This document shows, one piece after another, positions 1,015 to 49,183 of a stretch of 64,000 bases of DNA (positions are counted from its first letter, which is position 1; every line of letters starts with the position of its first letter). The notes beneath the pieces were generated by a model, which was not told the origin of the DNA, made no database searches, and worked only from the letters and a program-made list of their open reading frames with translations. The stretch is from Paramecium tetraurelia (taxonomy: Eukaryota): assembly GCA_000165425.1 (NCBI GenBank), contig CT868068.1, positions 62,001 through 126,000 of the forward strand. The letters run 5' to 3'. The translations under genes were made by a program, and so were the position numbers.

Positions 1015-3834
1015 ATGTTGTAAGAGGTATAAGTGTTTTTTATAAGCCCCCTCTCATCATCTAATAGGATAAATGACGAATCCTTATAAAGTTACAAGTA
1101 TATACAATATATGGGATATAATAAAAATGCATCTATTTTATGTTCCCTAATACATTATGCTTTTAATAAACAAATTTCAAGAATCCTAGAGAGTATTCTT
1201 CAGCTGATTAATACCTTGAAGAACTAAACAATTTACACTGAATTTGTAAAATTAATCAAATAAACCAAATTTGAAAAGAACCATGTATAGAAATTCTTTT
1301 AAAATCTCTATCTGATAGACCAGAACAATGAAATTGCTGGAAAACTACTTTTTGATCTTTGCAAAAGTAAGGATTGGTTGGATGGTAGTTAAATAGCATA
1401 CAATCAAATAGCGAAAGAATTTTAGTTGAGGATTTCTATTTATAATTGCAATGAAGTTTATGGAATCTAATTCAAAGAAACTATCGATCTGATGGTTGAT
1501 GCTAATAAAAAATTCTATTTTCTCATCTCAGAACCAATATTTAAGAACATAGAGAAAACATAATGTCCCTAATGCAAAATAAAATCGGAATTTATTTTAT
1601 TGACTTGCAATCATAAACATTGCTATAAATGTTTACGAAAGAAATCTTAAATTGAGAATATCAAATGCCATTGTGGAAAAATATGTTATAAAAAAAATGT
1701 GTTGCATTGCTTATAAAACTTTGACAAAGTGAAAGAGTATAATGAAATGAGTAAAGTTTTGTTAAAATATTATGAAAGTGCAAATTCATCAGTTGCACTT
1801 ACAGATCAACAATTATCATTAGATAGAAGTAGAAGATATCATGCAAATCAAGATATTGAACAAAAGATTGCACCTACAGTTGAACCTCTATATGAATGTA
1901 GTATATGCTCAAAAAAGTCTTAAAGTTAATTATTAGTCTTAGAAGACTGCAAACATCAATTTTGTTATTATTGTGCATAGTAATATAAATTACAAAAAGA
2001 GTGTCCCTTATAAAACTGTATTAAAAAAATAGAGTAAAATTCATAGTAAACTTGTTTAAATAAAAATAATTCAAAAGAAATAGATTATCCAATTATTAAT
2101 TAAAACATAAAAGAAAGCATTTAAAATTCCTCCAATCCTAAAGTAGCAGAACAATGTTCTAGATGCTCTAACACATCTAAATATAAATTATTTGAAGTAA
2201 AAAAATGTAATCATAAATTTTGTAAATCATGCCTATCAAATATTGAGATGAAATATGAATTAGCCTTTTGTTTAAAACCCAAATGTTAATCAACATTTAC
2301 AAAGCAAGAATACAAAATGTACTTTAAGTCTGTATAACCATTATCAAATTCAGAGGTGCCTTAAATGTAAAGAGTGATTCCCCCCTAAAACTAATACTCA
2401 TCTTTTGACTGCGAAAGTTGTAAATATAAAAGAAGTGAAGATCAAAAATATATATTAAACTGTGGTCATTCTATTTGTAATGCATGTATCATTTTAAATG
2501 TTTAATTCAAAACAACATGCTGCTATTTAGCAGCTTTGGATTCTGAATATCAGCAATTTCGGAAAAATATGACTACAAATTGCAAAGGTTGCCAACTCCC
2601 TTTTCAAATAAAAGAATTGTTTTAGTCGAATTGTAAACATGAATTTTGTTTAAGTTGCTGTTAAAAAATATATTTAGAAAGATCTCAAAGATGCTTGGAA
2701 AAAAGATGTGGTAAACTAATATTTTTTGTAGATGATTTGTATAATTTCATTTGGAGTTAAAAAATAGAGGAAAGTAAAGATATTTCAAACAAAGAAGTAT
2801 AGAAAAAAACTGAGGAGTTAGAAGAATAAGACAAGGATTAAAATTTGGAAAAATAAGATAATAAACAAATAAAAGAAGATTCAAAGTAGATTGATAACAG
2901 TCTACACAGAAGTACTCAGTGTTAAAAAACAAAATCCATAGAGGAGTAAGAATCTCCTACACTTCAAAAATCTGTCATCAATTTAAAGGAATATAAAATT
3001 AATGAATAAAAGAAGGAGGAAATAAATTTACCATCAACAAAACTATAAGAGATTGTTAAGCCTAATGGTTAGAATCTTGTTCAGAATGGTGATCCAAGAA
3101 AATAGGAAGTTTACCAATTTGAAGATGATATTTCTGGGTCTGAAGAAAATTATGAAGAGGAGATAATTATTTACTAATAGATCGAAGAAATTAAATCTGC
3201 TAAAGAAAGAGAAAACGAATTTTGTAAAGGAAATTGTACAAATTGTAATTCAGAATTTTCTCCTTTTAATAAAAAATAATTGATTGATTGTAAATTACAT
3301 TAAATTGGAGCTTGTTGCATTCTAAACAAATTTATCCGTTGTCCCTAATGCGAATAAACTCCATCTAAAAAAATAATAATTCACTAAAAGCTGATACTAC
3401 CATGTAATCCTGTAGAAGAAGAAAGTATATTTGAATCAACCATCTTAAAACCCTCTTTAGGCAGTTACTATCCTCAATCTTTTCAGTAAACCTATAAGGG
3501 TTATAGTGATCAATTATAAAGATTAGAGAGATAGAGAAATAATTAAAATTCTGCGATTAAAAGAAATCTTACAACTGATACTGTCAATAAAAGGATTTAG
3601 GATAATCAATAAGTTTTAGAGGACAAATCTAAATATAAAAATGAATAGCTAATTCAGAATGAGTTGACTTTACTAAAATCTTCTCCTCCTTATCTTTAGC
3701 AACCATACCATCCCTATCGATATGAACGACTTCAGTATGGAGGATATGATCAGAGAAACAGGTTGGAATTATATAGCAGAGACTTTCATTTGAATTCAAA
3801 AATAACAACAGGATATTCAGGGAGGTTGTATTGA
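1015..3834 (+). CDS. Multi-RING-finger protein (6 RING-like units) with a degenerate OTU-like N-terminus, 939 aa
   Basis: ATG 1015 and TGA 3832-3834 are in frame. Repeated C-x2-C...C-x-H-x2-C-x2-C...C units at ~1564, 1897, 2155, 2410, 2581 and 3235. Confidence 0.85.
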
Positions 3835-3936
3835 GGTATAATAAAGGTTATTAATTTTGGAACTTTGTCTCTTTTATTTCAAAATTATTAAACACTAATA
3901 TAATATATTATATTTTCTTTTTATTATTTTACATTC

Positions 3937-6552
3937 ATGTATTAAATAACTCCAATATCAGATACAATAAAGTCTCGATACCCGTAACTCAAGGACTACT
4001 ACCTATGCTAATTTTTGGGGGAGAACCAATAATCTGCAATAATATGTTCAATCCTGCATTATCTTTTGAATCGTCGACTAAGCAGAAGTCTCGAATACTT
4101 TAGGAGTCCAAAAATAAATTACAAATAGTTGCATGCATAGGAAATCGCTTAATTCCTGCAGGAAAGTTTGGAAATGGAAAATCCAATATAAAACTTCTTC
4201 GAAAAGTTGTCAACTTACGATTAGAATAATCTTATGACAGAAGTTTTACTCTAAGACTTTTGCTTTTCTTATTAATTAATATATAAGGGTTAAATTTGTT
4301 TGAATTATTTGGCTGACTTCTTAGATTTGAATATTAATATCATTCCATAATTAAATAGTCTAGGTAGAGGGAATAGTAATTTAATTATAATAAGAGAGTA
4401 GGAAGAATATTATTTTATTATCCCGGAACCTCAATTCTAATTAGAAACCTAAACAATTTGCTTTAGTTGTAGCAGAAAGGTTTATGTCTTCCTGAATCTT
4501 TAATGTGATCATTAAATTTGTTTGAATTGTCTCTTTAAACAAAACCAGCAGAGTTATACGGATAATTTTCAATGTAGATGTGGATAAGTCATTTAAAAAT
4601 AGCAGGTTGAATAATTTTAAAATGAAATCAGTGCTATAGCTAAAACAAATCGTTATAATTTAGTATTGGAGCAATTCTATCATCAGTGCAGCTCCACCTT
4701 AGTTTAAAGAAAGAGTTAAATTCGTACTAGTTTTGCAAAATAGCTTAATGAATCAATATCTGAGTAATTGACTGCAACTGAAATTTAGATTTCTCTCCTT
4801 GATGAGACAAATAGAGTTTTAGAACAATTAGATGAACATTGTTGTAATTGTCATGGAGAATCAAACAAACCTTACTTTTATTTAAATAATTGCTCGCATA
4901 AATTTTGCTTTGAATGCATTAAAAAAGAGTTTTAAAATGATTGTTGTGGGGGATGTTATTGTATGGTTTGTCCTAATAAAGTCTCAAGAAAAGAATACGA
5001 GTTATATTTATAAATGATAAATGTTGCAAAAGACAACATCTAAGAGAAACCACCTGAAAAAGAGAAAACAGAAAACAAATGTTAAAATTGTAATAACAAA
5101 TTTCAATATCAATTGTTTGCAATAGAAAATTGTAAGCATAGTTTTTGTGATACATGTTTAGAATAGTTTTTTGCAGTTAATTACTTTTAAGTCTACTACT
5201 GTACTGTTCCAAATTGCCCAGGTACTTACAACAAGAAGGACTATGAAAAGTTTAAATAGGAGTTTAGAAAACAGTTGTAAATATCATATTCTGAATTAGA
5301 GAATTCATGTCATCAAATTTCGTGTGACTTTAATCTATTAAATAATTGTAAATAATGTCTAAAATAATTATGTGTTTCACAATCAGAAATTAAAGACTAA
5401 ATTTGCTCAAATTGCAGTAATCCAACTTTAAAAAGTAAGAATCTAATCGAAAACGATTCCACAAAGATCACTTCAGATGATCAGAAGGAAATCGATCTTA
5501 ATTGGAGTCTTTTAATAGATAAATGCTAAAAATGCTAGAAAGAATCACAATATTAATTATTCTAGATTCCATTATGTAATCATAAGTTTTGTAATTCATG
5601 CATTTAGGGTTCGATAGAAAACAAATAAAAAGATTAGAGATGTCTTAATAAGAATTGCAAAAGTTTATTTACTAGGGGATCTTATTAAAATTATTATAAT
5701 AATTTATTACAGGATAAAGAGATCATCCAAAATAATTAGCAAATATTAAATCAACAATTAATCACAAAATCAGAAACTTTCAAGCAATAACCAAAAATAA
5801 ATAATCTAGTAAATCTCAACTTTAACTCAAATGTAACTGTTTAAAGCTCAACAACTAGTACAACTGATTAATAATTGTGTTCATTTTGCAACATTTTGAG
5901 TGATTTGGATCAAGTCTTTCTTATCAAATGTGGACATTAAATTTGTTAGAGATGTAGTCTACGTTTAAAGGGTTAAAATTTTAGATGTAGTAAGTGTTTG
6001 ACTCTTTTTGATAATCTTAGATTTAAAAAGTTTAGATTATCTTGTAAGTACAAATGCGACAATTGTAAGAAAACCTTTCCTTTTGATTAGATTTCGCCAA
6101 ACTAAAAATGTCTACATTCTTTATGTTGGTAATGTCTCTAAATAATTTATACGAATAAAGAGACTCAATATTGTTGTGTCAAAAACTGCAAAAAATCATT
6201 TACTGTAGAAAAGGGTTCTAAAAATATTTAAATCTTTCCCTAGTAAGATGTTGACTCAAGTAAAGAAGCTTAACAAATTTTAAATTTGAAATTTGTAACT
6301 AGTTAAAAAATCATTTAATCGAATTCTTAAGCTATTGCTAAAATTGACCAAAGCCTATCTATTTTATTAGAGTAAAAAAAATAGAAATAAGAAATTGAAC
6401 AACCTTTTAAAATACAATCATGTATGATTTGTAATTAGGATTTCGATGATTACAATTTGCCGGTAGTCTTCTCGTGCAATTTACACATAATTGGTATATG
6501 TTGCATACTTAATAATTATCAACTATGTTACCTATGCGATAGAGGGCTTTGA
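3937..6552 (+). CDS. Multi-RING-finger protein (7 RING-like units), tandem paralogue of 1015-3834, 871 aa
   Basis: ATG 3937 and TGA 6550-6552 are in frame. RING units at ~4459, 4841, 5079, 5524, 5878, 6055 and 6421. Shares motifs with the upstream gene (SAIICSILHY vs ASILCSLIHY; LHIIGICCILN vs LHQIGACCILN). Confidence 0.85.
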
Positions 6553-6592
6553 ACACTATATTTACATATATTAAGCTTATATTCATTTAATT

Positions 6593-6868
6593 ATGTTATA
6601 ACATCAATGCTCGGAAAAATCTTTTGAGAGTTTTAGACACAATTTAGGTTCATAGGATCACTTGGAGCCTGATGAAATACAAACACCAGAAATTTATGCA
6701 GATTATAATTCGATCTCCCTTCATTAAGAGATCAGAAATGAAAATATGCAATTTATTAAAAAAAAATATTGTTTTAAGGTAATTACATTAATGTAAGAAT
6801 AACCCAATCAATTGAAGCAAAAGAAATGTTATTGCCAAACTCTCGATCCCGAAAACAGTAATTCTTGA
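6593..6868 (+). CDS. Short hypothetical ORF (91 aa)
   Basis: ATG-to-TGA open frame filling the gap between two genes; no recognisable motif. Confidence 0.35.
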
Positions 6869-6904
6869 TTTTATTTATATTTATTCCATTTCGTTTTAAA
6901 TATT

Positions 6905-9430
6905 ATGATAACAAAACAGATAAATGCAGTTATTCTAGTAATTTTATAAGAATTGTGTAAGCATTGCAAATAAACTAAATAAAATCCACGTGATGTGATA
7001 AGTTACTTTATTCAACCAGATAAAAAAGGTATGGATGTTTTTGGATTTATGATTATGATTAAAAAGATTTTACCATTTGCTGAAGAATAAATGATTGAAA
7101 AGACTTTTTCATACATTTAGTAGCGATTTGGATGTAAATTATTAACTAGTTAAATATTTGAGGAGCTTATGATAAGAGTAGAATCTTAAATGACTAATAT
7201 TGAACTGTCTTAACAAATAAGGTTCAGAACAAAATAATAAATTGAATCATAACAATAAAGCAATATTTAGATGAATAATGCATCAGCAATTTAGACTTAG
7301 CATGAAAAAAAACCAATATTTGATTAAAATTTTAAACCCTCTTAGATGACAAATATAGTTTCTTAACAAGTGCCTAAATAAAATGTATCAAATTAAGTTG
7401 CTTAAAATTGCAATCGATCAGAAATAGAGTTAATTTAAACTTTCAGCACAAAATTAAAAAATGCAAATATCAACTTTATCGATGTGTTCAATAAGTTTGA
7501 TAGCAATAAAGACAATATGATGAATCAGTTAGAATTTTAGAAGATGATTCAAATTGTAATCAAGGATATCAAAGAAGATGAATCAAGAATCCTCGCTCGA
7601 TGGGTTTTCAAAGATTAAAACAAAGAACTAACAGCATTTCAATTTAAGAAGATTTTTGAATTTCAAGAGTAAATTATTCCATAGGCTAACATTATGGAAT
7701 CCAACTACTATGAAAATCCTGCTAATTAAAAATTATTATAATCAAATTATCAATTCTAAGAGTGCTTTGTTTCTGATTACAACCTAGTAGCTATGAAAGA
7801 ATTCCTTTCAAAATATCAATAATTAAAGAGCCAGAATTAATTATATACTGACCCTGTATTCCCTCCAAACTAAGTAAGTTTGGGAAGTAAATTCTAACAA
7901 TTTTAATGGAAAAGAATACCTTAATTTATTTCAAATCCAAAATTCTTTGTCAAAGAAAACATAGTAAACAGATTTGGTATTGGTAAGTGGATTACACCAG
8001 ATGATTTACAATAAGGGTAATTAGGAGATTGCTACTTTTTAGCCTCGATCAGTTCATTAGGGAACAGGAGACCTGATCTATTATTGGAAACATTTGTTAC
8101 TAGAACTTTCAACCCTCAAGGACTCTACGGTGTCAAATTGTGCATTGATGGAGAATGGAAAGTTATTGGAATAGATGATTTCATTCCAACCCACTACAAT
8201 AAGCCAGCATTCACCAGAGGGAAAGACTCAGAAATATGGGTTATGGTAATTGAAAAGGCATGGGCTAAAGTATTTGGTTCGTATGAGAATATTGAAGCTG
8301 GTTTCCCTTCAGAAGTCTTAAGAACCTTAACTGGAGCACCAACTAGAACTATATTCACAAGTGATGAGAATTTTGTTGAAGACTTGGAAAGTTGCATAAA
8401 GAATAGATGCATAATGGTATGCTCATCTAAAAATGAAAATAAATAGTAATATAAACTTATGGGGCTAATAGCTGGTCATGCTTATACAGTACTAAAAATT
8501 AAAGATTTGAATTCCAATACAAAATTAATCAAACTTAGAAATCCTTGGGGAAAGGAGGAATGGAAGGGAGATTGGTCGAATTAAAGTCAATTGTGGACTC
8601 CAGAGTAGAAGGCACAATTTAAAATAACAAATGCTAATGATGGAGTCTTTTACATGAGCATCACAGATTTTCGTAAATATTTTGATGACTTATCTGTTTG
8701 TTACGTGAAGGAAGGGTATTAGTATTAATCTACTACACTTCAATCAAGTAATAGGAAAAGCGAATATTTTAATATCTAAATTTAAAAGCCAGGGTGCTAT
8801 TATTTTACAATGAATTAAAAGAACGTTAGGTATTAATTTTTATAATTCAATAGATTTGAGAATAGCAATCAGTATTCACCAGCTAAGATTTTGTTATTTA
8901 AAGGAGATAGTTTATTAGATGGCAATTTTAAGAGCGATAGAGAATGCTGGATAAGTAAGGATCTCGATTAGGGATAATATACACTAGTTATCAAAGCTTA
9001 ATGGTAGTTTTCTAAAATGAATAAGTACACTTGGTCATGTTATGGACCTGGTCCAATTCATAGCGATAAGATTAATAAGATTCCTAATTTATTGAATTCT
9101 GCCTTTCTTAAGTTAGCTAGAGTAAGCGTAAAAAAGAAAGGATATTAAAAGCACCCAGACATTAAGTAGGCGTATGAATTTCATCTTAAATATGGGTATC
9201 AATATGTATATATGATTAGTTATGGATTTTACTATGTCGAGAATCAAAGCAACAAGAGTTTTGAAAGTAAAGTGAGATTTTCATAAATGAAAGGTTTAAA
9301 ACTCCGAAAACCTTATAGAGGATATAGCGTGGAGATTAACTTATAATAGAATCAAGAGTTCTTTGCTTTGTTAAGTGTTTCTAAATCTGGATATTCCTTT
9401 GGTATTGAAGAATAGTATATTGTAAAATGA
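6905..9430 (+). CDS. Calpain-family cysteine protease with N-terminal EF-hand region
   Basis: Triad motifs QGQLGDCYFLAS, GHAYTVL and LRNPWG, plus IEKAWAK. EF-hand-like DSNKDNMMNQLEF near 7500. Two 24-nt introns (8830-8853, 9196-9219). Confidence 0.93.
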
Positions 9431-9513
9431 TAAACCGATAAAATCCAAATGACTTCTATTTTAATCTTAAATTATATCTAGTTATTACGATTGGAAATTA
9501 ATATATAATTATT

Positions 9514-12154
9514 ATGATAAAATCACTTAAGTGTGTCAAATGTTTGCAAGAAACAAAAGAAAGTGCATCTTATAAAGCAAAATGTGGACATCTATATTGC
9601 AACAAATGTATTGACTAGATTACTGCTGAAGGAGGTTCAAACTGTTCAGAAAAACAATGCTCTTATTTTCTAAACATATCAGATCTTATGAACAGGCAAT
9701 TCCAAAAAATATCCGGAAGCAACTAAATGGTATTTGGGAAATAAATTACAATGTTTTAAGGAGATGCTAAAAAAATGGGTATAATGACCATTTATAATAG
9801 CATCACCATCTTAATAAAATAAAGCAACACCTATAAAATAGAATGTTCAAAATGGCAACACTCCAATAAAATAATAAAAAAATACTTAACCTCGAAGGTC
9901 ATTTTAAGAACGTTCCCCTGTAGCAATTTAAACAAAGTCCAAATCTTAGATGCAAAAACTTACAGATAGGGTTTTACAATAATAGAACAGCGCAAAGGTT
10001 ATTCAACCAAAATAATAACAAACTTAATAAAGATAATAACAATAATAGTAATAATAATAATAATAATAACAATAATAATAACAATAATAATAATAACAAA
10101 ATAGATAATAATAAAATTAATAAATCATAAAATAACAATAGATTCAATAAACAGATTAAATATAACCATAAAAATAAGAAATCAAAGTCAATATTGAAGA
10201 TAGAATGATTGAATCTATCTAGTATAAATGTGATTATTGCAATTCCAATACTTCCGGATTATTTCATAATGAAATATGCGATCATAGATTATGTTATGAT
10301 TGCATCTAAAAATATTATGAGGAATTCTGTGTCTGTTTTGTAAAGGATTGCGGTTGGTAGATCAACTAGGAATAATTAAATTAGTTTATGCTCACTTATG
10401 TTACATTTCAATTAAATGAGGTTGAAGAAATTAAACTAAAAAGACAGCAGTCCTCATCAGATCAATAAGACATTCTTATAAGCAAATTTCAATTTGAAGA
10501 AGTTACTTTATAACATATGTAAATCTCTAATATGAATGAATTCATTAAGACATTTGATGAACTCAAAATTAAAGAAAAAAACTACGTAGATCTTAGATTT
10601 GGTCCAAATGAAAAAAGTGTTGGTTCAAATTACACTGCCACTTGGTAGAGATTGAATGTTATTTTTAATGGAGATTTTCAATTTTTTGCGAAATCAAGTG
10701 ATAATAAAAGGTTTGGACTAGGAAAGTACATTGGTCCCCAAGATATAATACAAGGATAATTAGGGAATTGCTATTTGTTGGCTTCAATTTCTGCTCTGGG
10801 AAATAGAAGACCTGATTTATTATTAGATGTCTTTATTACGAGAGCAATAAACGAACAAGGAATATATTGTATAAGATTGTGCATAGATGGAATATGGAAA
10901 GCCATATATGTAGATGATTATTTCCCAGTCTATCCTAATCTAAGTCCCATTTTTACTAAAGCTAAAAATAATGCAATATGGGTCATGGTATTGGAGAAAG
11001 CATGGGCCAAATTATTTGGATCCTATTAAAATAGTGCATCAGGTTCTATGTAAGAAGTGCTAAGAGCTTTGACTGGAGCACCTACAGAAGTAATCTGGAC
11101 TCAATCTCCAGACTTTATTGCCTAGCTTCGAAAATGCCTTGCCAATAGAGTTATAATGGTTGCAGCAACCTAGAGTAGTGAAGTTTAACCAATTACATAA
11201 GGATTAGTTCCAAATCATGCCTATTCAGTTCTAAAAATCAAATAAATAAATCACCCAAAAAGAGGATAAGTGGAACTACTGAAATTAAGAAACCCTTGGG
11301 GAAAAAAGGAGTGGACAGGTGATTGGGGATAAGAAAGTCCATTATGGACTCCGTAATTAAGATAGGAGTTAAAGTTAGATTCTGAAGATTCTGGTGTATT
11401 TTATATGGATATTGGATCATTTATGCAATAATTCAGAGATATCCATATTTGCCATGTCTAATAAAATTACTAATATTCTGCAACACAAAGCAAATCCAAT
11501 AAAAAAAAGGCTGTTTACTATTCTTTTAAAATTACTAAAGATGGGGATTATTACTTTACTATAAATTAACGAAATCAAAGATGGGCAGGGAATCCTAAAT
11601 ATAGCAATGCCAAGCTATTAATTTGTAAGAAAGAAGAAAATAATTAATACACATATATCGCTGGTAAACTTAGTTAATTTGGTGAAGTTTGGTGTAAATG
11701 CACCTTAACAAAGGGGGAATACGTTGTTTTTGCTAAAGTAATTTGGGAACATCACCAAGAGTTCTTCTTTGTTCTCTCTTCATATGGAATGGAAAAACTA
11801 GAATTCAAACAAATAAGAAAGATTCCTGATATGCTTCCCAGTGTTTTCATAAAGAAAGGGTTTGTTTAACAACCTAAACGAAGCTACGACACAATGGGAT
11901 AACCCAAGATTCAAAGTTGCTATAATCTAGATAGACTGGATGGTTGGGGCTATTATTTCATTGACAACTAATCAAGTGTTAAATTAATAAGCAAAATATC
12001 ATTCCATAAATTCTATGGGTTGCGATTTTGTAAACCTCATAGAGGAGTCACTTTAAATATTGAACTGCCCCCTGGTAAATAGTTTATTGCTGTAATCAAA
12101 GTGTTATCAGGATATGAAATCGAATTTACTCAAAAGGTTCAATTTCAACAATGA
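9514..12154 (+). CDS. RING-polyQ-RING-calpain fusion protease (~872 aa)
   Basis: N-terminal CVKC...CGHLYCNKC...C RING; 22-nt intron at 9779-9800; Q22 tract; second RING CDYC...CDHRLCYDC; then QGQLGNCYLLAS, NHAYSVL and LRNPWG, all in one frame to TGA at 12152. Confidence 0.9.
10034..10099 (+). repeat. (TAA/CAA/TAG)22 coding microsatellite encoding polyglutamine
   Basis: 22 consecutive Gln codons, mostly TAA, in the same frame as the downstream calpain domain. Confidence 0.9.
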
Positions 12155-12227
12155 TTCTTATTTTTAGTTTATGTAATTTAGTATTGATAATTTATAGAAA
12201 TGTATAATAAATATTATTAATTAAAAG

Positions 12228-13118
12228 TCATTACTATTCCACTAAATCTTCTATTTCTGTAGTAATCCCAGTACTTAAAGGATAGACATCTTATTATGCA
12301 TCTTCTCCATTCTCTACATGTTTATAGTATTCAATTTCTTACATAAAAAGTTCATAAATTATTGATATCGCAGTTTAAATAATTCAGGAATCTTTAATTC
12401 GTCTAATTATTTCATCAACTCATAGGCAAAGTATTTTAGAGTCAGTTAATCTAAACTCACAAATTTTATTAATTCAAACTCTATATCACCTTCCTAAATT
12501 GCTCTAATAGCTAATCATAAATTATACGAAAGAATAGCCCTTATCAAAACTTCTGCATGAAATTATTTTGGTATTAAAAAATTCGGAGTGTTCTATTCAG
12601 TAAACGAAATAGTCTTATGTCCTTTCTATTGTAGACATTCTTTGTAGACATTGAATATAGGTAATAAATCCTTGGAATCCTTTAAAAAAATATAAGTAAA
12701 TTTTATTACTTAGTAAAATGGCAACCTGACATGAAAAATTTGAACAGAATTCACATTCTCTGTATTTGTTACTATCAACTCTCCAATTTTCACTATTGTT
12801 ATAAAAATGCATTAATACTTTCTTAGAGGAGCTCATTGGTTTTATTATTTTTATCTCTAATAAATATATTTCATTTATGGATTACCTTTTCGATATATAA
12901 GACCAACCTGGTTCATGAGAAGAATTCACTAAAATCGAGTTTAAGAATTACCTACTACATCCACTAATTCTTCTACGATATCTGCTTATACAATTTAAAT
13001 GGTTGTTTAATTAATGGTTCTTGTAGTTATAACTTTTGATTCTGGTTGTAGGCTTTGTTTTTTATCCTCTTCAATTCCACAAATATCTAATTAGCAATTT
13101 AATAATACTGTTTCCCAT
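12228..13118 (-). CDS. Macrodomain-like (A1pp/ADP-ribose-binding fold) protein, degenerate, intron-rich
   Basis: Spliced translation: MGNNICG...TTIQIVQADIVEELVDVVVNSSH...TISFTEQNTPNFLIPKQFHAEVLIRAIL...LIKFVSLD. This follows the macro consensus order. About seven 22-30 nt introns. Confidence 0.7.
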
Positions 13119-13309
13119 TCTAAAATTTATTATTTTTAATTATTTAAGAACAGCAATTGATTAATAGTATTAAATTGATTGTTATCATGATATAACTTCA
13201 AGTTTAAATGATTCAGTAGTATTATGACAATTTAAATTAATATTAAGTTAGAAAAATAGTATTTTAGAAATAATTTATATGAACATATATATCATTATAA
13301 AATAGAAAG

Positions 13310-14587
13310 TCAACACTAATTTGACTGCTTCATTTAAAAATCATTTTTTTCAATTTTTTTGTCTGGAAAAAACAAATCCAAAAGTTCTTGTCTCATCTTT
13401 TATAAAAACTTGTATTATAGGAATGAATTATTCTAGAATTAACTTAAATAATTAGCAGCTATGCATGTATAGTATCCGCAACTGGACCCATCTTTCTATT
13501 TTGGAAAATCTTTTTTATTTAGAACTTCGAATTTAAAATATTAATCTTTGGTAAGAGTTTGGAATACTGTATTAAAAAAGAGTTCTACTTTATAAGACAA
13601 GCTATTGAACATAGAATCATATAAAATTAGCAATCTTTCATCTACTTTCACTTCAAGAAATTGCCAATGAAAATTACTACTATTAATTACTATCCCTATC
13701 TTTTTGTAAATAAGCCAGAATTTATATTAGATGGCACTAAATTATTTAATATGTTCCAAAAATAGGCATATAAATTTTCTTTTAACGTGCTCCTAATCTT
13801 AAATTTCAAATTATTTGAGCGTGCAATTAGCTATAAGTGATGAAGGAAATATAATAAGTCTTTAGTAATTTTTTCTTTCTCGAGAAGGCAAGGAGAAATA
13901 ACGAAGTTCATCTTAAATTTGTAAGTAGTTCATGTAACCATCAATAATATTGGTATTTAGCAGCATGTTATAAGTAGATAATATTCTAAATTCTGGATCA
14001 GATATGTTTTGGTTATATTTATAATTATTATTCTCATTTTTAAACTTCAAATAGTATGGAAACCTTTCTTGGACTATTTCTTATTCATCTGTGATGGTTA
14101 TCATCCAAAACATCTTCAACCGCATAATAACTTTATCATTATGCTTAATTATATCTGTTTATACTGTTTCTTTAAATAAATTGGATTATTGATACAAATC
14201 TAGATTTCCTTCATTGATGAATTTGATAACTTTATTTTAGGATTTCGTTTCATCATTTTGATAATTTTTACCATTGCTATAAGGATTGATTTAATCTTAA
14301 TTTTAGAAAAAAGTTTATTCAATTTAATATTAGGAGATCTAAATATCTTATTATTTTAAATCTTGCAAATAGGTTTGATATTCTGAATTTATGTATTCAA
14401 TGTATGATTGAGAAACTTCAATCTATGGCTAATTCTATTACTAAACTGATTCCTATATGTTCTGTTCAAAGAGTTTTAAGTATAACTTTTTGATTTCAAG
14501 TTGTAAACCAGAGAAATTTCTGTACAAACTTGATTATTTGAGATTCTGCATATGATCAAATTTTTCTTCATTCTATTCTAATTTCAT
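13310..14587 (-). CDS. Ulp1/SENP-like (peptidase C48) protease, 425 aa
   Basis: LLNTNIIDGYMNYL, FHWQFL...ILYDSM and PKQKDGSSCGYY give His-Asp-Cys plus the oxyanion Gln. Start and stop are in frame. Confidence 0.85.
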
Positions 14588-14633
14588 TTTATTTATTAAA
14601 AAACAAATAAATAATAAAATAATTTATCTACAA

Positions 14634-16055
14634 TCATAATTATTCGTAATAAAAAATGTCTTTCAAATCACTTTTAATGTCCTTCTTTTCCTTAAAATCC
14701 TTTACTCTATGTGTATTACTAAAATATTCTAGGGCAATACAAGTATGATAGCCACAAGAATATGAATCATTTTAACTTTAAAATTTTGGTTTAAAATACA
14801 TTTTGAATTCATATTAGTCTTCCTTAATGTTCTTTAATTGGTTCTTCTGAAGCTCATAAAATACATATGACAATAAAGCTCTAACCTTATGATAATGTTG
14901 GGAACTTCCACTTAAGGAATCATAAATAACCATGAATCTTTCTTTTAAATCCAAAGTAAGCATATACCAATGTGAGTTATTTTTATTTACAATAAATGCA
15001 ATTTTTTGATAGATAAGCCAAAATTGATATTGAATAGTTTTAAACAATTCTAGTTTCTCAAGTATTAATAATAACCATTTTTCTTTGAGAGGTGGAGATT
15101 CCAAATTACAATTGGTTAAAAAGTCAGAAGTAAAAATAAAGAGTCGTGGGTATTATTCTCTTTCTGCTGATGACAATGAAAAGTAATATCTTTCATCCAA
15201 CCCAGATAAATAATTACCGTATCCATCAATCATAGAACTAGTCCAATATTGACCTGTTTTTTCGAACATTTTCTATTCCCATTTGCCAATATTTTAATTT
15301 AATTTGATTTTTGGAAAAGTTTCCTAGAACTCAAACTTCTTTATTCTTCCCTCTTCCTTCAATGATTCTAATTTAAAAAGATCTTTTTCATAATGAATAG
15401 TTTTTCTTGAGACCATCTCATTTCCTACTTTTGTTTATAATTAAAACTATTTTAATTACATAACTATTTCATTTTCATTACTTTGATCTAAGACTATATC
15501 ACATTATTGGCATTTACACTTCAGCTTAGGTTTACTTTCCCTTTTCATCTACTCTTTTCTTTCATATTCAAGTTTTGGTTTTAATTAATCGAATTGAGTA
15601 TCACCGTGTTTATAAGTTTGACAATGCTTTTATACTCCCTTCTGAAAAGCCTTTAAATTTAGTTTCTCTTGAAAATGCAATTAATTAATATTTCCCGAAG
15701 GATTTACTAAAGGTAGAATATTTTAAGTATCTTTAGAAATTAAATGAATTGTTCTCTTATTGCTTACATTTTAATTCTATTAAAATTAATTATTAAGTGG
15801 ACATTTATCATTTTCATTATTATGTCCTCCATGTTTTATGAAATATATTTTATGAGGAGGTTATAGATAATATTTTAATTTATCTAATTTCTCTTTTACA
15901 TAATTCACAAAAACTGATTATTGAGGCTATTCTAATATAATTGGTTTGCATTTTGTGTTAAAAGGCTCTTCACTTTAAGCTATTACTGGAACCCTGACAT
16001 AAGTAGAATCTGTCACCTCCACTGTTTTGATTAATTTTCTATGTTATTGCATCAT
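14634..16055 (-). CDS. Ulp1/SENP-like (peptidase C48) protease, tandem paralogue, 473 aa
   Basis: WTSSMIDGYGNYL, NNSHWYML...VIYDSL and SQNDSYSCGYH; start and stop are in frame. Confidence 0.85.
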
Positions 16056-16170
16056 TATAATTATTTTATTTTATAATAATTTGTTATGACAATACATTTT
16101 TCTACATAAACTAGTTGTTGTGTTTTTTCTTTTAAATTTTCACAATTTTATTAATTTAATAAATATCAAC

Positions 16171-16852
16171 TCATTAATCATCATCATCATCACTGCTGTT
16201 ATTTTTATCCATTAACGATCGCATATAAGTATCTATTGGAACAATCTTTCTTGGAATCTCCTCGTCTTTTAATTTGTTCATTAGTGATGGGTTTCTTTCT
16301 GCTTTCACCATACTTGAAGTTTAAGGAGTCATGAATCCTCTAAAAGCCCAATGAATTTTAAAATAATAAGGATGAGTTTCAGATAATCTTAGATCCTAAC
16401 ACTTATTATAAAACATACATGATCTGGAATCATGTGTTAGAAGACACATAATGGTTGTTGATCTATAAATTCACATATGTATTCTGCATATTAGAATAGT
16501 GATTTCCCATAATCCCCATACTTAAATAGAACATTATCCAAAAGTGCAGCCTTCTTATGGACTTTCTAATGAGTAGTCGCATGTTATTTGAATTATGAAT
16601 ACCATCTATGATATTTGCTTATTTAATATACCTTCTGGCTTCCTGATGGGTTTTGAAAACTAGGGCAACTTTTTAAATTCTCTCCTTGCCTGTCTTCTCA
16701 TATAAATCAAATCTTGCTGATTATACATCATTTTCAGGTGGCTTTGTAGGTATATGTTATTCAATGTAGCTTCGTCCTTCTTCCGAAATTATATGACTAT
16801 TCATTACACAATCCATAATAGTTTCTGCTAGTTCATCTATTTCCATTGACAT
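16171..16852 (-). CDS. Hypothetical protein (~210 aa) with acidic tail
   Basis: Open after removal of two short GT-AG introns; ends NSSDDDDDQ-TGA. Confidence 0.7.
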
Positions 16853-17036
16853 TTGATAAAATTATTCCAAATAATTTGTTGTCTCTCTTAATATTTCATT
16901 ACCAAATATTACAATGAAATATAATTTAACTATTAAATAAATTTATGTATTTCTATTTGTAAAACTACAGAGAATGTTTAAAGACTACTCAATTTAAATA
17001 TTGTATTAATATATCATAATTTACATTACTCTAGCT

Positions 17037-19513
17037 TCACAGAGGTTGTGTCTATTGTTTTTCTTGATATTCTTTGATCTAATGGTTTTACCACTCAATA
17101 TTAGGATCATACTTATAGAAAGGATGGGTAGTCTATTTTAAATTCATATATTCTACCTTAGCCTATGGATATTCTTACAAGAACTACAAATCTTCTGATT
17201 CTAAATTCTCTTCAAATGGTTTTTCCTTAATAATTGCTTCACAATGTCTCTCTATAATATAATATTATATTAAATATACTTATTATTTAATCCAATTAGG
17301 TCTTTATTTAAACATCATTCCAAAACTATTAATCGAACTGAATCAAATCCTACTAGTATTCCTTAATGTAGGGTAACAGTGTTCCTTAATATTTATTTAC
17401 TAAATTTAGTGTTTAATAGTATTACAAAACTATATCAGCATTAATTAATATTTGTGATTTACAATACGATTCTATTCAGTTTCATTGTTTCTCAATTTAG
17501 TCAATAACTTAGCACATAACAACGGTTTTTATTAATTTATGTACAAACCAACCATTTGTTTGAATGCTTAAAAATTCACCTCTTTGTTATTGAAATTAGT
17601 GTGAATTAAGACTTAAGCAAAACGATTTTACATTTTGATAATATCTTCCTAAGTTTTTAGTTGATCTAAAAGCTGTTCTCCAGAGAGATCGAATCTTTTT
17701 TATATATCTCTACTGAATATATGTCCTTCTATTGAAAACTGTTCCTTTAAGAGTTTTTCTTCCTATTCTTTTTGTTACTACTTTGCTAACAATTTTTTCT
17801 CTTTTGGAGTTAACTTCTTTTACTCTATTTTTCGCTATTCCTAGATTCTTACTCTAAGTCTTTCCAAACCTTCAATCATCAATCCAGCCGATTAAATAAA
17901 ATATTTAGCATCGTGTCTTTTATCGATAGCATCAATCATTTACAATAAAGATCTTAATGTGTATCTTCTGATTGAATATTAATAGAACTCTAATTAGTCA
18001 TCACACATTTCTTGGAAGTGTTTAAATATTAAATTAAATTGCTGTAAGGCAGGACCAAGATAATTTAATCGTAATAATGTTCTACCTATATTGAGTTCAA
18101 ACCAAATCATTTGCAATTCATATGGATCTGACCCATCTTTTAAGAAGAGACTCAATAAATCTTACGATACCACTATCATATTTGCTAGCGAAGCATATTT
18201 AATTGTCTAATTGTTCAAATATCTGTCTGCCAAATCCAATTGTCTAGCTCTATCAGCTGATTCATAAGCCTCTTTGAATTTTTGTAATTTCTTCAGAGTT
18301 TTTGCTTTAATCAAGTATAATTCAGGCAATGTAGCTGTATGTTCTATGGCTTCATTGATAAGTTCAAGGGATTAATTGTAATCCTTAATTTGATAGGAAT
18401 GCTGAGATAGTAACATCAAAGCCCAAAGCTTTTCGATTTGACTTTTATCCAGATATGTCTCAAAGGCTTTCTTCATAATTTCAATCTTGTTAGGATCTGT
18501 GTATAGATGTTTAATCTCTCTGAATAAGGATGGTAAGGACTTCTAAAAAAATGGATCAATAAATTAGAGGAAACTATTTAAAAATGAATCTCCTTCTTTC
18601 TGTGCAAGCAATCTACCTTATACTAAAGTGTTATTATAAATGGATAGATCCACTTATGGATCTGCCTTTTACAACATTTGATAGTATTTCCAATTTTAAG
18701 GCTATAAGTCAAGCAAGTGTTTAACAGATTGAATTGCACTTGTGTTATCTCCTATTTTAATAAAGTATTCGTATTCAAGTTCATAAAATGAGACCAAATC
18801 GGTGATATCACTAAATAAATTATGGAATTACTTTTTGAAATCAAGTAAATTTTGTTTAGCTCTTTGAAAGTCCTTGGCATCAATGGCGAGCTAAATTTAG
18901 TACAACTTAAATTCATTTATCTCAACTTTTTTGATGGGGTTTTATATATCCTTTTTAATAACATCTTCAGTCAATTTTATAGTATTAAAGGCACCTGCGT
19001 AATTGCCAATTAAATGCTGACTAAGTATGAAACCAACCCAATTTACTACCATTCCAGGTTTACTATTTAATAGTTTTTGCCTCAACCAATTATTTCCTTC
19101 GAAATCTCTGATGTGAATGGAGAGATTAGCAGTGTCTCTGATCAATTGAAGATTCTCCTCGCCCTTGTTGATTGCTTAGATGAAACATTTGACTGCTTGG
19201 ATGTAATTCTTTTCAGCCTTTTAGATTAAGCCATAAATGTGCCAACAAAAGTCTGAAGCCAAATTCTTGAGAACAGCCTGGTATGCTAAGGCAAGTCCTG
19301 CTTCACGTTCTTCGGTGTAGTACATGAAGATTGCTTTAAGTGAGACGACTTCTTAATTGTCTGGGACTTGCTCTAATAATTTCTCTGAATTTTTCAATCC
19401 TTTTTTGTAATCTTTGGCTTCTAGCAATCTCTTAAAGATGTTTAGATTGAATTAATTACCATCAAGGATTTGAATTCATTGTTTTGTTTTGCATTTAATT
19501 CTGTTGATTTCAT
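17037..19513 (-). CDS. NAA15: N-terminal acetyltransferase A auxiliary subunit (TPR)
   Basis: KDYKKGLKNSEKLL, SDFCWHIYGLI, IRDTANLSIHIRD, HTATLPELYLIKAK, ARQLDLADRYLN and QMIWFE match the Nat1/NAA15 pattern. Confidence 0.9.
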
Positions 19514-30891: not shown

Positions 30892-31689
30892 TCAATTTAA
30901 GTTTCCTTCATCATTCAACCATTGATGCTACTTCACTTATTCTATAGTGAATCTAGATTTGTGATCAGGCTCTAACATATTTTGGATCAAATTTCTGAAG
31001 TGTTCATCTGATCTAATGATTTTTTTGTCAAAGTAATTCCAGAAGGCCTACCATTTTTTCTGTTCAATGGTTTACCAGAATTTGCACTCTGTTGATTTTG
31101 CAATGGTGAATGGAGGACAACCATAGCAAAGTGTGAAAATTAATACACCAAGTGCAAACACGTCAGATTTCTTCAGAAATTCTCCTATAATTAGTTTGTC
31201 TTCATAATGTAACTCAGGTGCCATGTAGGTGGAGGTTCCGCAATGTCTTGAATATTGCTTATTAGAGTCAACATAGACAGAGAGACCAAAGTCGATCAAT
31301 ATTACATTAGGTTCTTGGGTCATCATCACATTTTCCAATTTGATGTCTCTATGAACATAGTCAAGTTAGTGTAAGTATGATAATGCATTACTGAGTTATA
31401 ATAGAATTTATTTTATGGTGCTCTTTTAGAGAGTGCCACGTTTTGAGATTACTGAATAGAGGTCTTAATTCAAGAGTTCTGTGATAAACCATTTGTACTC
31501 ACCATCTGACTTCACAATTTTCTGAATGTTAGGATGAGTGATGGATTGTAGAATCTTGATCTCTTTCTCCCTTAGCTTTCTGGGGCATTCTGCCTTATAA
31601 ATTTTAATGGCACAGGTGTTCCCATCGTCAGTTAAACATTTATGAATGTGACCGAACAGCCCTTCTCCAATTTGATTTTGTATTTACAT
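30892..31689 (-). CDS. Minimal Ser/Thr protein kinase (265 aa)
   Basis: [31 protein letters not shown] and KSDVFALG; start and stop are in frame. Confidence 0.93.
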
Positions 31690-31762
31690 TAATAATTAAT
31701 AATTTATTTATATTCCTCAATAATCACTCTGAATATCTTATAGAATAGCACGGCATCTTATC

Positions 31763-32590
31763 TCATTTACTTTTTAATCTCACTCTAATATCTGTTTCAA
31801 ATTCTTGTTACCAATCCCCAATTAAAAATGGATGATGTAATACTTCCTCAATTGTGAATCTATTCTAAGGGTTGAACTCTAACATCCCCTACATTAGGGA
31901 ATAAAAGCTTTGGTCATATTTATTCCTTCTATCCATAATTTACCAATAAGTCTACCATTAGCCTGATTAAAGTAAATTCCAGTAAGGACATGATTTCACA
32001 TTCACTTTATATGGTGGATGTGCGAAAGCCAAAATGAAGATACATACTCCTAATGAAAACACATCTGTTTTGGCTAATTCCTTAGCATTTATAAGGCCAA
32101 TTTCTTTAATTTCAGGTGCTAAATACTCCAAAGTACCTTAACATTTTTAAACGAAATTAGTATCCATAATTTCTGCGAATCCAAAGTCACATAGTTTTAA
32201 ATTGAAGTCTTCGTCAATTAATATATTTTCCAACTTGATGTCTCTATGGGCGACACTGATAGAGTGTAAATATTAAACAACACTAGCAAGTTTCTAACTG
32301 AAATGCTTCATTGAGTTTAAGTTTAAAGGTTTTTAGTCCTTTGCAATAATGTCAAATAGATCCATATCATTTAAAAGCTCTGTTATTATAAATTTCTTTT
32401 CGACATTGCTGTCTATAATCTTAATAATATTGGGGTGATTCACTTATTTAAGTAAAGCAATCTCTTTATTAATCATCTTAAGTGAATAATTATTTTTGTA
32501 TATTTTAATGGCGTAATTTAGATTTTCTATCTCGGCAACATAAACTGTGCTAGTTGAGCCAGTTCCAATAATTTAGTTTGATATTTTCAT
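31763..32590 (-). CDS. Minimal Ser/Thr protein kinase (275 aa), tandem relative
   Basis: [33 protein letters not shown] and KTDVFSLG; start and stop are in frame. Confidence 0.93.
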
Positions 32591-33360
32591 TTTTTTTTAT
32601 TTTATAATTAATATTATTTAAAAACACTATTATCAAATTTAAACATCAATTCTTGTAACTTCCTTATTAAATGATAAACTGGATTTTATAATGTAATAAT
32701 CATCGTGTCAATTAAATTATATCATCAGAATAGTGTTTACTCTTGCTTTTACAATCCCTAAAAAATGTTTTTATATGCAAAAAATACTATCTAATAAGAT
32801 ATATGATATAGAATTGTTTTTATATTTATCAATTCTCATATTTCTATTATTCAATTGGTTTATTTTGATAGTTACAAATATTGTTTATATATTAATATTC
32901 ATTTGGAATTACTGTGTCTTTTCTTCATTAATTAATATATATTATATTTATAGAAAATAAGAAAATGAGTAAAGAAATTTAAGTTTCATATTCTCACTAG
33001 ATTCCAAGTTGGTATTCTAGTTCTAGTTGCACTGAATATTATTTAAAATATAAATCTATCACATCTTTAAATATTATTTTTTTAGCTTTATTCAATTTTG
33101 GCACGAATTCTGCCCTTTATATCCATTTATTAATATCTATTGCCAATTGCTTAATTATATATTCTTAGTGCAAAAAGTAAAACTTATACTAAATATTAAA
33201 AATATTGCACATATTATAGTCTTATAATTCATTTTAGAGATGGCCATAAAATTAAAATACATTAGAAAATCATATCAATTAAATAAGCTCATTTTATAAT
33301 TGGATATTTTTATAAAATAGTTCTTGTATTAATTATTAATTATAAGTTAAAGAAAAAGCC

Positions 33361-34125
33361 ATGAATATAGTAATACTTTGCAAATCAATTCTAGAAGTAA
33401 AGATTGTCGATCCAAACTAAAAGATATACGATTATATGTGCAAAATTTTTGAAAGGCCGAAAAACAACATCATAGTATAAATATCACCCACTGAAAAAAT
33501 TGATTAAGAGGAGTATTTTTCAAAGTTTATGAATGAAAATCTTGATAAAATAGCATTTTATGTTCTAGATTCGAATGGATGCTCTATATAGTATACTAAC
33601 CAGCCGTATAAGAAATAGACTAGCATTACATAATATGGGTACTGCAGTCAAGAAACTGATGAGATCTCATTGAGTAGAACTTTAACGAGAAACATATCAT
33701 CACAGAATTTTGATATTGGTACTGTCAAAGTTATTTAGACTAATGTGTGTACATTCTGTACGACTTAAATTGAAGAGGATGATATTCAAACATCCTGTTA
33801 GCATTTCTACCACGCTAAGTGCTTTAAGCTTATAATAGAGAACTAATTGTTGTAAAAATCACCAGTTCTAAATTGTATGTGTAAAATTCAACTGAATTTG
33901 AGTTCCCTATTTCGATTAGACGATAAGTATGAAGCTGATTCCTTCAAACATAGATTTATACTGAATTAGTTGTCTGCATTAGAGAAGAATATATAGAAGA
34001 AGTTTGGAAATGAATTTAGGAAATGCAAGAATGTTAAAAGCTGTAAATTTTTTTATTTGCATTTACCTTTCATCTAAGATTAACATGAGTATTGCCCAGA
34101 GTGCTTATGGCGTATAAATAAATGA
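33361..34125 (+). CDS. RING-finger protein with C-terminal IBR-like Cys cluster (254 aa)
   Basis: CTFC...SCQHFYHAKC...CMC followed by KCKNVKSC...YCPEC; in-frame ATG to TGA. Confidence 0.75.
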
Positions 34126-42020: not shown

Positions 42021-42971
42021 TCATCTGAACCAAGTGCTAAATCCTTTCCCTCTGCCATTTCTCACTATCAAATACTTGCAGTCTTTCGAAACATAGAAAC
42101 TATTTTCACAGCCTGCAAATGCTATCGATTACTGTAATTACAGTTCCTTGTCATGATAACTAAATATTCGAATTGTTTTATTGAATTTATGAAACAGCAA
42201 TTTTCCTTCGTTCTAAAAACTGATTGAATTTTCCCGACTGATGTCAGGTTTTTTTTCGAGATAAATTTCTGTTATTCTAATTAATTTTGAACGCCAATGG
42301 TTCCATTCATATTACATTAATTTCTAACTAGTACTTGGTGATGATACGAACATATTTTAATCCAAAAATACCACCATTTTCCAAATTGAATAAATTGATG
42401 TTCTTACTTTATAACTAATTTGCCATTTCTAACCATTTTAACATTTAGCCAAAAGTATTAAACTTTGCATCCCAATCACTAATTCCTTTTCTGACTCACT
42501 CAAACTCATACTAGTAGCTTTCTCTTCTAGTTCTAATTCAAAATAAATTATCCTCTTTTATGTACTTTATTCCTTCTACCAAAATTGTAAGGATCTTTCA
42601 AAAGAAATTATCATCTTTTTTTCATCTCTATTGAATATGAGGAATTATATTCTCTCTTACAAACTAATCACTTTTCCTTTTGCCCACACCTTTTCTTCAT
42701 TGAACTTCCAAAAACTTAGACAACACCCCATTGTGATAAAAGTTTTGCCTGATTTCATAAAATACACCTAATGTATTAGTAATTCCTAATTTTAGATTAT
42801 TTATGTATTAATCATCTGCCCATCGTCTTGCAGTGAATATATATATATAACTGTCCAAGTGCACCCAATCAGGATTGTTGAATCATTATTGATCGTAAAG
42901 CATTTAAAAGACTCATTATCTATTTTTTCTTGTTGATTCACAATCTCAAACTTTTAGTACTTCTAATTCAT
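42021..42971 (-). CDS. Divergent WD40/beta-propeller-like protein (316 aa)
   Basis: Fully open frame; repeated patterns such as CFTINNDSTILIG, LSFWK, LIFNRDEKKMII and LQFWQ. Confidence 0.6.
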
Positions 42972-43038
42972 ATGATAAGGATTATTATTATTGAATTATA
43001 AACTATGCATAATACTAAATGGGACTGTTATATCATAA

Positions 43039-44223
43039 TCAAAATTTCCAATTAGAATCTGTAGCCATAGCCCAAATGAATTTATTTCTTAAAGTTTTTG
43101 AAAACACTCTTTCAATAGGCACATCATGTACTTTACAAAATGCAACACTNNNNNNNNNNNNNNNNNNNNNNNNNNNNNNNNNNNNNNNNNNNNNNNNNNN
43201 NNNNNNNNNNNNNNNCAATTTGATATGTTCTACTCTAAGACTGCAACAACCTACTGTATCTGCTTCATCCTCATCCTTATCATTTCCAACTCTCAATGCC
43301 AATTTATCTATCAAATAGGTTGCTGTTCCTAATTATCTTTCTTTAATTGAATCTGATTGTAATTTCTTAGTGTAATTTTCTCTAATTTGATCAATTTAAT
43401 TCTTCAATCTCCTTGCCTTCTCATACTTCCTCTTATCATTCATCTACTTAAATCTTGAAGTGGCAGCAAATTGAACATATTTATGATTGTCCTTTCTGAT
43501 GCTTGAATCCACATAAGAAAACAGCCAAGTGACATCATTTCTATGCACAATCTTGCCCCAAGAATGACCAGGTAATTTACATTAAGGCACTGGTGCTTAA
43601 GTGCTTAGATTCACTGTTAATTCTTCTGGAAATATCCTGGCTTTCAATAACCCAGCCTTTGGATGTTCCCCTCGTCCCTTGAATAAAGTGGGCTATTCCA
43701 GTGTGTAATTACCTACTCTTTCCAAACAACCATCCACCAAAGCATATCCATAAAACAACTCCCTTTGATCTCTTTCTAATTTCTCCTACTTTTTTTATTC
43801 ATCTGATTTATTCAATCTCAATAATCTTTGCTATTCCAAATGTTCCCTTATCTTTGTGAAATCAGCCTTGTCCAATTAAAACCCTTCAAATTTAGTCTGC
43901 ATTAGAGATTCAAAATTCTTCCTATAAATTTCCTTATTTTCATATGGAGATCCAATCGATTACGCCCAATACGTGCAAAGTTCTTCCTACTCCTCCGTCA
44001 GGGTTATCAATTTCCCATTGTATATCAAACCCACATTATGTCTCTTATAAAATGGAGGAAACAAAACTCCATGATGTTCTAAGTACCTCCACTCCTAACC
44101 CTATTGTTCTTCTTCTTCAGATTCCTCAGGATTGGCTTCTTCCCACCAGTTGTGTGATCTTGCTTGGAATCCCCCCAAACGAATCTCTTTATATTCATCA
44201 ATTTTGATTTTCTTGTCACCCAT
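43039..44223 (-). CDS. TOP1: DNA topoisomerase IB, interrupted by an assembly gap
   Basis: [31 protein letters not shown] and [30 protein letters not shown]; after the N-run comes the C-terminal [26 protein letters not shown]. Confidence 0.95.
43150..43215. other. Assembly gap (66 N)
   Basis: Run of N bases in the sequence. Confidence 1.
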
Positions 44224-49073: not shown

Positions 49074-49183
49074 TAAAATCAAATTTAAAATTATTCATTC
49101 AATTTATTTATATTTATTTTAAGTTCAAATAAAGTTTGATAAAGTAATCCCAATGAGAAATTAATTATTTAATTTAAATAGAA

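Follow-up and report, generated by a model that had tools for sequence, protein, structure and literature searches.

Seven neighboring genes at positions 1015–16055 of a 64,000-nucleotide (nt) stretch of Paramecium tetraurelia macronuclear DNA (contig CT868068.1, positions 62,001 to 126,000 of the forward strand; this whole stretch is referred to as the window) all encode ubiquitin-type ligase, protease, or macro-fold domains. Do their products work together, or have the genes only been inherited side by side? The block comprises two poly-RING genes (R1 and R2), two calpain genes (C1 and C2), one macro-fold gene (M), and two genes for Ulp1-type proteases (U1 and U2). An initial annotation, made from the sequence alone, had proposed a locally amplified, rapidly diverging signaling or defense module and had named chance adjacency of tandem pairs as its own alternative. 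Given old duplicates, upstream regions without a shared motif, and a lack of corresponding calpain fusions among the 120 relatives listed, this alternative is the better-supported reading. We therefore regard the block as probably an inherited adjacency of lineage-specific families in a collinear genome, and not as an operon-like unit. The part worth following up is the two domain architectures encoded in it, i.e., an apparent pseudo-otubain joined to a RING array and two RINGs joined to a calpain, neither of which was found in the literature searched.

Gene Content, Age, and Linkage of the Block

The GC content in the window is 24–34%, and the long open reading frames (ORFs) of the block open only with the ciliate code (1015-3834, 3937-6552, 6905-9430, and 9788/9950-12154 on the + strand; 13310-14587 and 14634-16097 on the − strand). 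Four genes lie on the + strand, separated by intergenic gaps of 83–352 nt, and three face them on the − strand, the orientation that had initially been described. A Pfam scan judged against curated cut-offs, the RING profile, and a macro family profile bore out the initial domain calls for all seven genes. The ubiquitin theme is even stronger than the initial annotation saw, since both poly-RING genes also carry a predicted OTU-like fold. Gene models and domain positions are compiled in Table 1.

R1 and R2 share 26% identity (E 2e-39), C1 and C2 38% (E 3e-128), and U1 and U2 37% over 227 amino acids (aa; E 6e-39). At these identities, the three pairs represent ancient tandem duplicates and not a recent amplification, so that the proposed local amplification holds in the ancient sense only. 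Rapid divergence, the second property ascribed to the block, was found for a part of the genes. Between P. tetraurelia and P. octaurelia, identity was 80.4% for R1 and 72.1% for U2, as against 92.7% for C1 and 97.6% for the C2 paralogue. The corresponding values for P. pentaurelia were 63.3% (R1), 80.5% (C1), and 93.8% (C2 paralogue), and those for the sister region from the whole-genome duplication were 42.8% (R1), 35.4% (U2), and 90.8% (C2). From the lower between-species identities of the poly-RING and Ulp1 genes, we conclude that these evolve several times faster than the calpains; only the former can be called rapidly diverging.

Linkage in relatives was read from accession order, with accession numbers assumed to reflect gene order. 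In P. octaurelia, P. pentaurelia, P. primaurelia, and P. sonneborni, counterparts of the genes in the block lie together on contigs, with accession numbers differing by 1–14. In P. octaurelia, the orthologues of R1, C1, and U2 are located on one contig of 399,968 bp within 14 accession numbers, and the R1 and C1 orthologues are six numbers apart in P. pentaurelia and eight in P. primaurelia. The sister region, on another scaffold of P. tetraurelia, harbors the poly-RING gene GSPATT00017994001 and the RING-calpain gene GSPATT00017996001, two gene numbers apart. This pair is also adjacent in P. pentaurelia and P. primaurelia, and a Ulp1 gene lies 4–6 numbers from the sister-region RING-calpain in P. 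octaurelia and P. sonneborni. Because the sister region holds linked counterparts, the block is older than the last whole-genome duplication. The Paramecium genome rarely rearranges, and conserved gene order is its default; conserved linkage is thus uninformative on function. The comparison with sibling species and the duplicated region, which the initial annotation had suggested, therefore yields conserved linkage by accession order and does not discriminate between a module and chance.

An Otubain-Like Domain Joined to a RING Array in R1 and R2

R1 and R2 have an N-terminal region of ~176 residues that is kept across the family. According to structure prediction, this region has an otubain-like OTU fold, a domain that had gone unnoticed in the initial annotation and is new here. 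The fold predicted from six family sequences reached a predicted local distance difference test (pLDDT) score of 83.5 and a predicted template modeling (pTM) score of 0.81, and every match listed by Foldseek was an OTU deubiquitinase. OTUB1 was the best match and the only one at E ≤ 0.001 (E 8.8e-4, probability 1.0, TM score 0.53–0.57). At the sequence level, Pfam OTU gave E 0.098 on the R2 N-terminus and no match on the R1 N-terminus, and the six-sequence family profile retrieved no OTU domain from the PDB at E ≤ 10. Atlas feature matches to OTU clusters scored 0.85, which we treat as a lead only.

In OTU enzymes, the first long helix begins with the catalytic Cys, and the last strand contains the catalytic His. 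Helix 37–52 starts with Lys/Asn/Ala (Gln/Gln/Ser in R2); C43, the only Cys nearby, is replaced by Tyr in P0005; and none of the six family sequences has a His in or beside strand 167–172. Given the substituted helix start, the missing strand His, and the non-conserved C43, we infer that the domain is apparently a pseudo-deubiquitinase, with the catalytic positions mapped by secondary structure and aligned ranges instead of superposed coordinates, a mapping that leaves the invariant H47 and C116 unexplained. Together with these two, the residues G34, N36, S44, N51, D102, Q103, and E173 are invariant (R1 numbering; nucleotides 1015-1575 in R1 and 3937-4470 in R2). According to PMC10919355, OTUB1 binds to E2 enzymes and inhibits them non-catalytically, and about 13% of deubiquitinases count as pseudo-enzymes. 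On these grounds, binding of E2 enzymes or ubiquitin is the most economical guess for the role of the OTU-like domain.

The nearest known counterparts of this domain are the otubains OTUB1 and OTUB2 and other OTU deubiquitinases, including the OTU domain of FAM105A. It differs from otubains in lacking a sequence-level match, in not conserving the canonical Cys and His, and in being followed by five to six RINGs. Within the portions covered of the literature on OTU and RING architectures in ciliates and on pseudo-OTUs, no description of an OTU–poly-RING protein was found. Such a chain would combine two modules for binding E2 enzymes or ubiquitin, and it would lend itself to testing whether the non-catalytic, E2-binding aspect of otubains works on its own.

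The R1 ORF product is identical to the database protein P0001 (939/939 residues). The C3HC4 pattern was found five times in R1, six times in R2, and once each in the short ORF preceding the C2 calpain ORF and in the latter itself. Across these 13 aligned repeats, the first seven ligands (C, C, C, H, C, C, C) are invariant and the last C nearly so, with the ligand spacing of a cross-brace. A profile built from the repeats matched solved RINGs in the PDB, led by RING1B/BMI1 (5.7e-10) and including RNF4, Tfb3/MAT1, TRIM21, TRAF6, and ARIH1, down to approximately 1e-4. Single matches to Pfam RING were weak and below the cut-off (E 0.0046 in R1; 1.6e-4 to 1e-3 in the short ORF), and R2 had none. 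To judge from ligand pattern and profile matches, the RINGs of R1, R2, and C2 are genuine. An RBR-type reading was discarded: the match to RING1 of ARIH1 (8e-5) is weaker than those to ordinary RINGs, and no IBR or RING2 follows downstream.

With C3HC4 RING E3 ligases such as RING1B/BMI1, RNF4, TRIM21, TRAF6, and RING1 of ARIH1, the R1/R2 copies share eight zinc ligands at the same spacing; they differ from these in that one chain carries five to six copies and that single copies stay below Pfam cut-offs. In RINGs, a hydrophobic residue located between the first and the second Cys serves as an E2 contact. As most copies in R1 and R2 lack this residue, the ligase activity of each copy is uncertain. 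The variant finger near the C-terminus of R1 aligns with the C-terminus of R2 at 37% identity and was not scored as a RING (−0.5 bits with the RING profile).

Upstream of both genes, we noted the word TTGTCTCTTT (at about 873-882 for R1 and about 3868-3877 for R2), the 9-mer core of which occurs only about four times in the window on both strands. Both genes may have kept this word from the duplication, or it may be a control element common to the two.

A Two-RING Calpain beside a Putative EF-Hand-Type Calpain

Both calpains matched Pfam Peptidase_C2 above the cut-off (1.5e-75 for C1 and 1.1e-67 for C2). The C1 product is identical (825/825 residues) to P0010, i.e., GSPATT00037859001 of P. tetraurelia; its Cys, His, and Asn align with those of calpain-9 (1ziv), and C2 retains these motifs in the C1/C2 alignment. 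The EF-hand_6 match of C1 was weak (E 0.001; 19.1 bits vs. a cut-off of 25).

A RING-calpain fusion had already been noticed in the initial annotation, as had a doubtful short ORF. The fusion was borne out, its spliced gene model encoding a RING, a polyglutamine stretch, a second RING, and a calpain core; the short ORF is not separate, being exon 1 of this gene. A canonical 22-nt intron (GTA..TAG) links the ATG at 9514 in frame to the calpain ORF, so that C2 starts there and not at 9950. Exon 1 encodes 88 residues, which align at 84% identity with residues 1–89 of P0006, an annotated paralogue (E 5e-50). Scored with the RING profile, the C2 relatives P0006, P0007, and P0008 all have a pair of RINGs at the N-terminus. 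The latter two are calpains of P. bursaria, which makes the fusion an old one that did not arise by recent shuffling at this locus. The precomputed Pfam annotation assigned a RING to only P0007 among the 120 calpain relatives listed.

C2 has the CysPc core in common with non-classical protist calpains, such as the EF-CysPc-C2L type of Paramecium and zinc-finger calpains (e.g., calpain-15), and differs from them by two RINGs and polyglutamine ahead of CysPc. A survey of 41 calpain architectures (PMC3563603) reports the EF-CysPc-C2L type for Paramecium and calpains with UBA, PUB, or UEV domains for other protists; the word RING is absent from its main text. A two-RING calpain kept across the genus Paramecium would link limited proteolysis with ubiquitin-type signaling. 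Whereas R1 and U2 each had a 100% match among the proteins searched, C2 itself had none, its best match being a paralogue at 88%; the public gene model of C2 may differ or be missing.

A Degenerate Macro-Fold Protein and Two Ulp1-Type Proteases

Spliced M (235 aa) aligns without gaps to the 235-aa protein P0152 at 68.5% identity. A previous five-intron model (296 aa) overlapped the 3′ end of the calpain gene and was replaced by this seven-intron model. The exons of M had no Pfam match at E ≤ 0.001. When one 87-residue exon was used as the query of an exhaustive HMMER search, five relatives were returned, three with Paramecium names or cluster members and one an unrelated repeat protein. Pfam Macro gave 2.6e-8 for P0154, 2.5e-4 for P0156, and 0.011 for P0152, with one of the three above the cut-off, and a profile of the M family matched MacroD-type, macroH2A, PARP14, and PARP9 macrodomains (1.4e-8 to 4e-5). 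The AlphaFold2 model of M was poor (pLDDT 51.5); its top ten Foldseek matches were macrodomains, with a few non-macro entries lower down.

While M thus resembles the MacroD-type, macroH2A, PARP9, and PARP14 families, it differs from them by degenerate ligand loops. In the HMMER alignment to 5lcc, about 14 residues are missing at the glycine-rich first ligand loop, and the second ligand loop is without glycines. Since the first loop is deleted and the second lacks its glycines, reading of ADP-ribose should not be assumed. The initial annotation had invoked this function for the macrodomain, but with both binding loops missing in the alignment, M is probably no usual ADP-ribose reader. M and its relatives start with Met-Gly-Asn, followed by Cys in the closest ones (13109-13118, − strand), and we regard this start as a putative myristoylation/palmitoylation signal.

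U1 and U2 matched Pfam Peptidase_C48 above the cut-off (2.5e-9 and 2.1e-16, respectively), and the U2 product is identical to P0126. In U2, the residues His, Asp, Gln, and Cys line up with those of yeast Ulp1 (1euv) in a very divergent match (E 0.0044), and U1 retains the catalytic motifs of U2 in the U1/U2 alignment. The two proteins thus share the C48 domain, and U2 the four catalytic residues, with the Ulp1/SENP family; they differ from it by very divergent sequences and long N-terminal halves with no domain assigned. The relatives returned for U1 and U2 came from the Paramecium aurelia group only.

Do the Seven Genes Work Together?

The reading that we favor, with a confidence somewhat better than even, is that three ancient tandem pairs (pseudo-OTU/poly-RING, calpain, and Ulp1-like) and one macro-fold gene came to lie side by side and were inherited whole. 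R1 and R2 would then be scaffold- or ligase-type proteins, in which the non-catalytic otubain-like domain could bind ubiquitin or charged E2 enzymes and the RING array E2 enzymes or substrates. C1 would act as a calcium-regulated calpain and C2 as a calpain with two RINGs attached. For M, a macro-fold protein whose ligand pocket is degenerate, a lipid anchor is probable, and U1 and U2 are presumably active, fast-evolving cysteine proteases of the ubiquitin-like protein (Ubl) type. Most likely, we infer, the seven products act separately. Their upstream regions share only AT-rich words; no non-AT word was common to all seven, and one 10-mer was common to those of R1 and R2 only.

Several findings weigh against mere adjacency. 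One broad functional theme covers all seven genes, and the OTU-like fold adds to it. Copies of the poly-RING, RING-calpain, and Ulp1 genes were retained in both duplicated regions, and macro and Ulp1 paralogues share contigs in three further species, 32–44 accession numbers apart. In addition, at an assumed theme frequency of 3–8% and with approximately 30,000 units (tandems collapsed), four consecutive units of this kind are expected 0.02–1.2 times per genome, a figure derived from assumed frequencies and not from a computed test. Under these assumptions, a run of four units is not trivially expected. The theme was, however, defined after the fact, and the estimate neither proves nor excludes a real cluster.

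The block could alternatively constitute a working ubiquitin/Ubl-proteolysis module in one pathway, e.g., in stress or symbiont control, with its linkage kept by selection. The single theme in seven of seven genes, the linkage with double retention in both duplicated regions, and the fast divergence of the poly-RING and Ulp1 genes, which resembles that of conflict-type genes, are all consistent with such a module, as are the calpains joined to UBA, PUB, or UEV in other protists (reported in PMC3563603). We nevertheless consider it unlikely. This genome keeps its gene order by default, the duplicates are ancient, and the seven upstream regions share no motif. Among the 120 calpain relatives listed, none was fused to a C48, Macro, or OTU domain by precomputed Pfam annotation. 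Moreover, the macro pocket is degenerate, and the conservation seen in the calpains is missing in the poly-RING and Ulp1 genes, so that the block has no common evolutionary mode.

A narrower link, confined to the + half, seems slightly less likely again. The RINGs of the poly-RING proteins and of the RING-calpain might share an origin through exchange between neighbors, or might share a partner, e.g., one E2 enzyme, with the macro and Ulp1 genes as bystanders. The RINGs of R1, R2, and C2 indeed agree in their C3HC4 spacing, in which four residues often separate the last two Cys, and poly-RING and RING-calpain genes are neighbors in both duplicated regions. However, with a RING profile built from R1 and R2 only, the two C2 RINGs scored 29.2 and 25.2 bits, no better than unrelated solved RINGs (29.5 bits for Tfb3). 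The two-RING calpain also exists already in P. bursaria, whereas no poly-RING relative was returned from outside the aurelia group, which, coming from a shared-word search, is weak evidence.

Most doubtful is a Paramecium-specific ubiquitin/Ubl toolkit acting as one pathway, possibly in the control of intracellular bacteria or in cortical stress responses, in which non-catalytic otubain/poly-RING scaffolds would capture ubiquitin or charged E2 enzymes, the RING-tethered calpain and the EF-hand calpain would add calcium-triggered cleavage, a membrane-anchored macro protein would localize the system, and the fast-evolving Ulp1 proteases would reset it.

Functional gene clusters are known in eukaryotes, namely the metabolic clusters of fungi and plants and the operons of nematodes. 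The block resembles these in being a set of neighbors with one functional theme; it differs from them in that its genes lie on both strands, each with its own short intergenic region, and in that the functional link is putative. Co-regulation of the block, if present, would make it a rare example of a ciliate gene order with functional meaning. Under the favored reading of inherited adjacency, the gene neighborhood itself is probably ordinary.

Table 1. Genes and domains of the block (positions in the window; aa, amino acids).
Feature	Position (nt)	Strand	Remarks
R1: OTU-like domain, 5 RINGs, variant C-terminal zinc finger	1015..3834	+	939 aa, no intron needed
R1 otubain-like OTU fold, canonical catalytic positions apparently substituted	1015..1545	+	aa ~1-176, predicted fold
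R1 five C3HC4 RINGs	1552-1728, 1885-2061, 2143-2328, 2398-2550, 2569-2751	+	pattern and repeat profile
R1 variant Cys/His finger near C-terminus	3223..3369	+	kept in P0002-P0005
R2: OTU-like domain, 6 RINGs, variant finger	3937..6552	+	871 aa, uninterrupted ORF
R2 OTU-like domain	3937-4455	+	faint Pfam OTU match, predicted family fold
R2 six RINGs	4447-4623, 4828-5004, 5068-5259, 5512-5700, 5866-6039, 6043-6231	+	C3HC4 pattern
R2 variant finger	6409-6549	+	conserved Cys/His, scores as no RING
C1: putative EF-hand-type calpain	6905..9430	+	825 aa, two in-frame 24-nt introns (8830-8853, 9196-9219); CysPc ~7844-8701
C2: two-RING calpain	9514..12154	+	872 aa, intron 9779-9800
C2 parts: RING, polyglutamine, RING, calpain core	9520-9702, ~10020-10120, 10217-10378, ~10583-11455	+	profile, Pfam
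M: divergent macro-fold protein	12228..13118	-	235 aa, 8 exons
M introns (22-30 nt, n = 7)	13108-13087, 12951-12929, 12885-12857, 12818-12793, 12709-12680, 12527-12504, 12342-12314	-	gene model
U1: Ulp1/C48 protease	13310..14587	-	425 aa, C48 match ~13382-13957
U2: Ulp1/C48 protease	14634..16055	-	473 aa, best C48 match ~14670-15002

Surroundings of the Block

In the parts of PMC3091696 covered, the main text holds no passage on neighboring genes or on calpain, and none of six gene identifiers, five of them guessed from the number of C1, occurs in the text supplements. Outside the block, the window contains an ordinary assortment of genes, encoding a NatA subunit, kinases, topoisomerase I, a ribosomal protein, a USP5-like protease, and an ion channel. 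About 1.3 kb separate the block from the gene for the NatA auxiliary subunit (Pfam 7.1e-65; 17343-19475, − strand), with an unassigned ORF (16430-17143) in between; this further protein-modification gene illustrates how broad the theme is. A USP5-like deubiquitinase with UCH, two zf-UBP, and UBA domains (49157-51295, + strand) is located 33 kb from the block. The ORF at 32869-34125 (+ strand) shows a Cys/His pattern like that of RING-H2 or of RING1 in RBR proteins; it had no Pfam match at E ≤ 0.001 and none with the R1/R2 RING profile. A run of N at approximately 42100-43300 breaks the topoisomerase I gene and a neighboring ORF, appearing as X in the translations. Finally, a further tandem pair in the window, at 30892-32632 (− strand), consists of two protein kinase genes (Pkinase 3.9e-53 and 3.1e-52).

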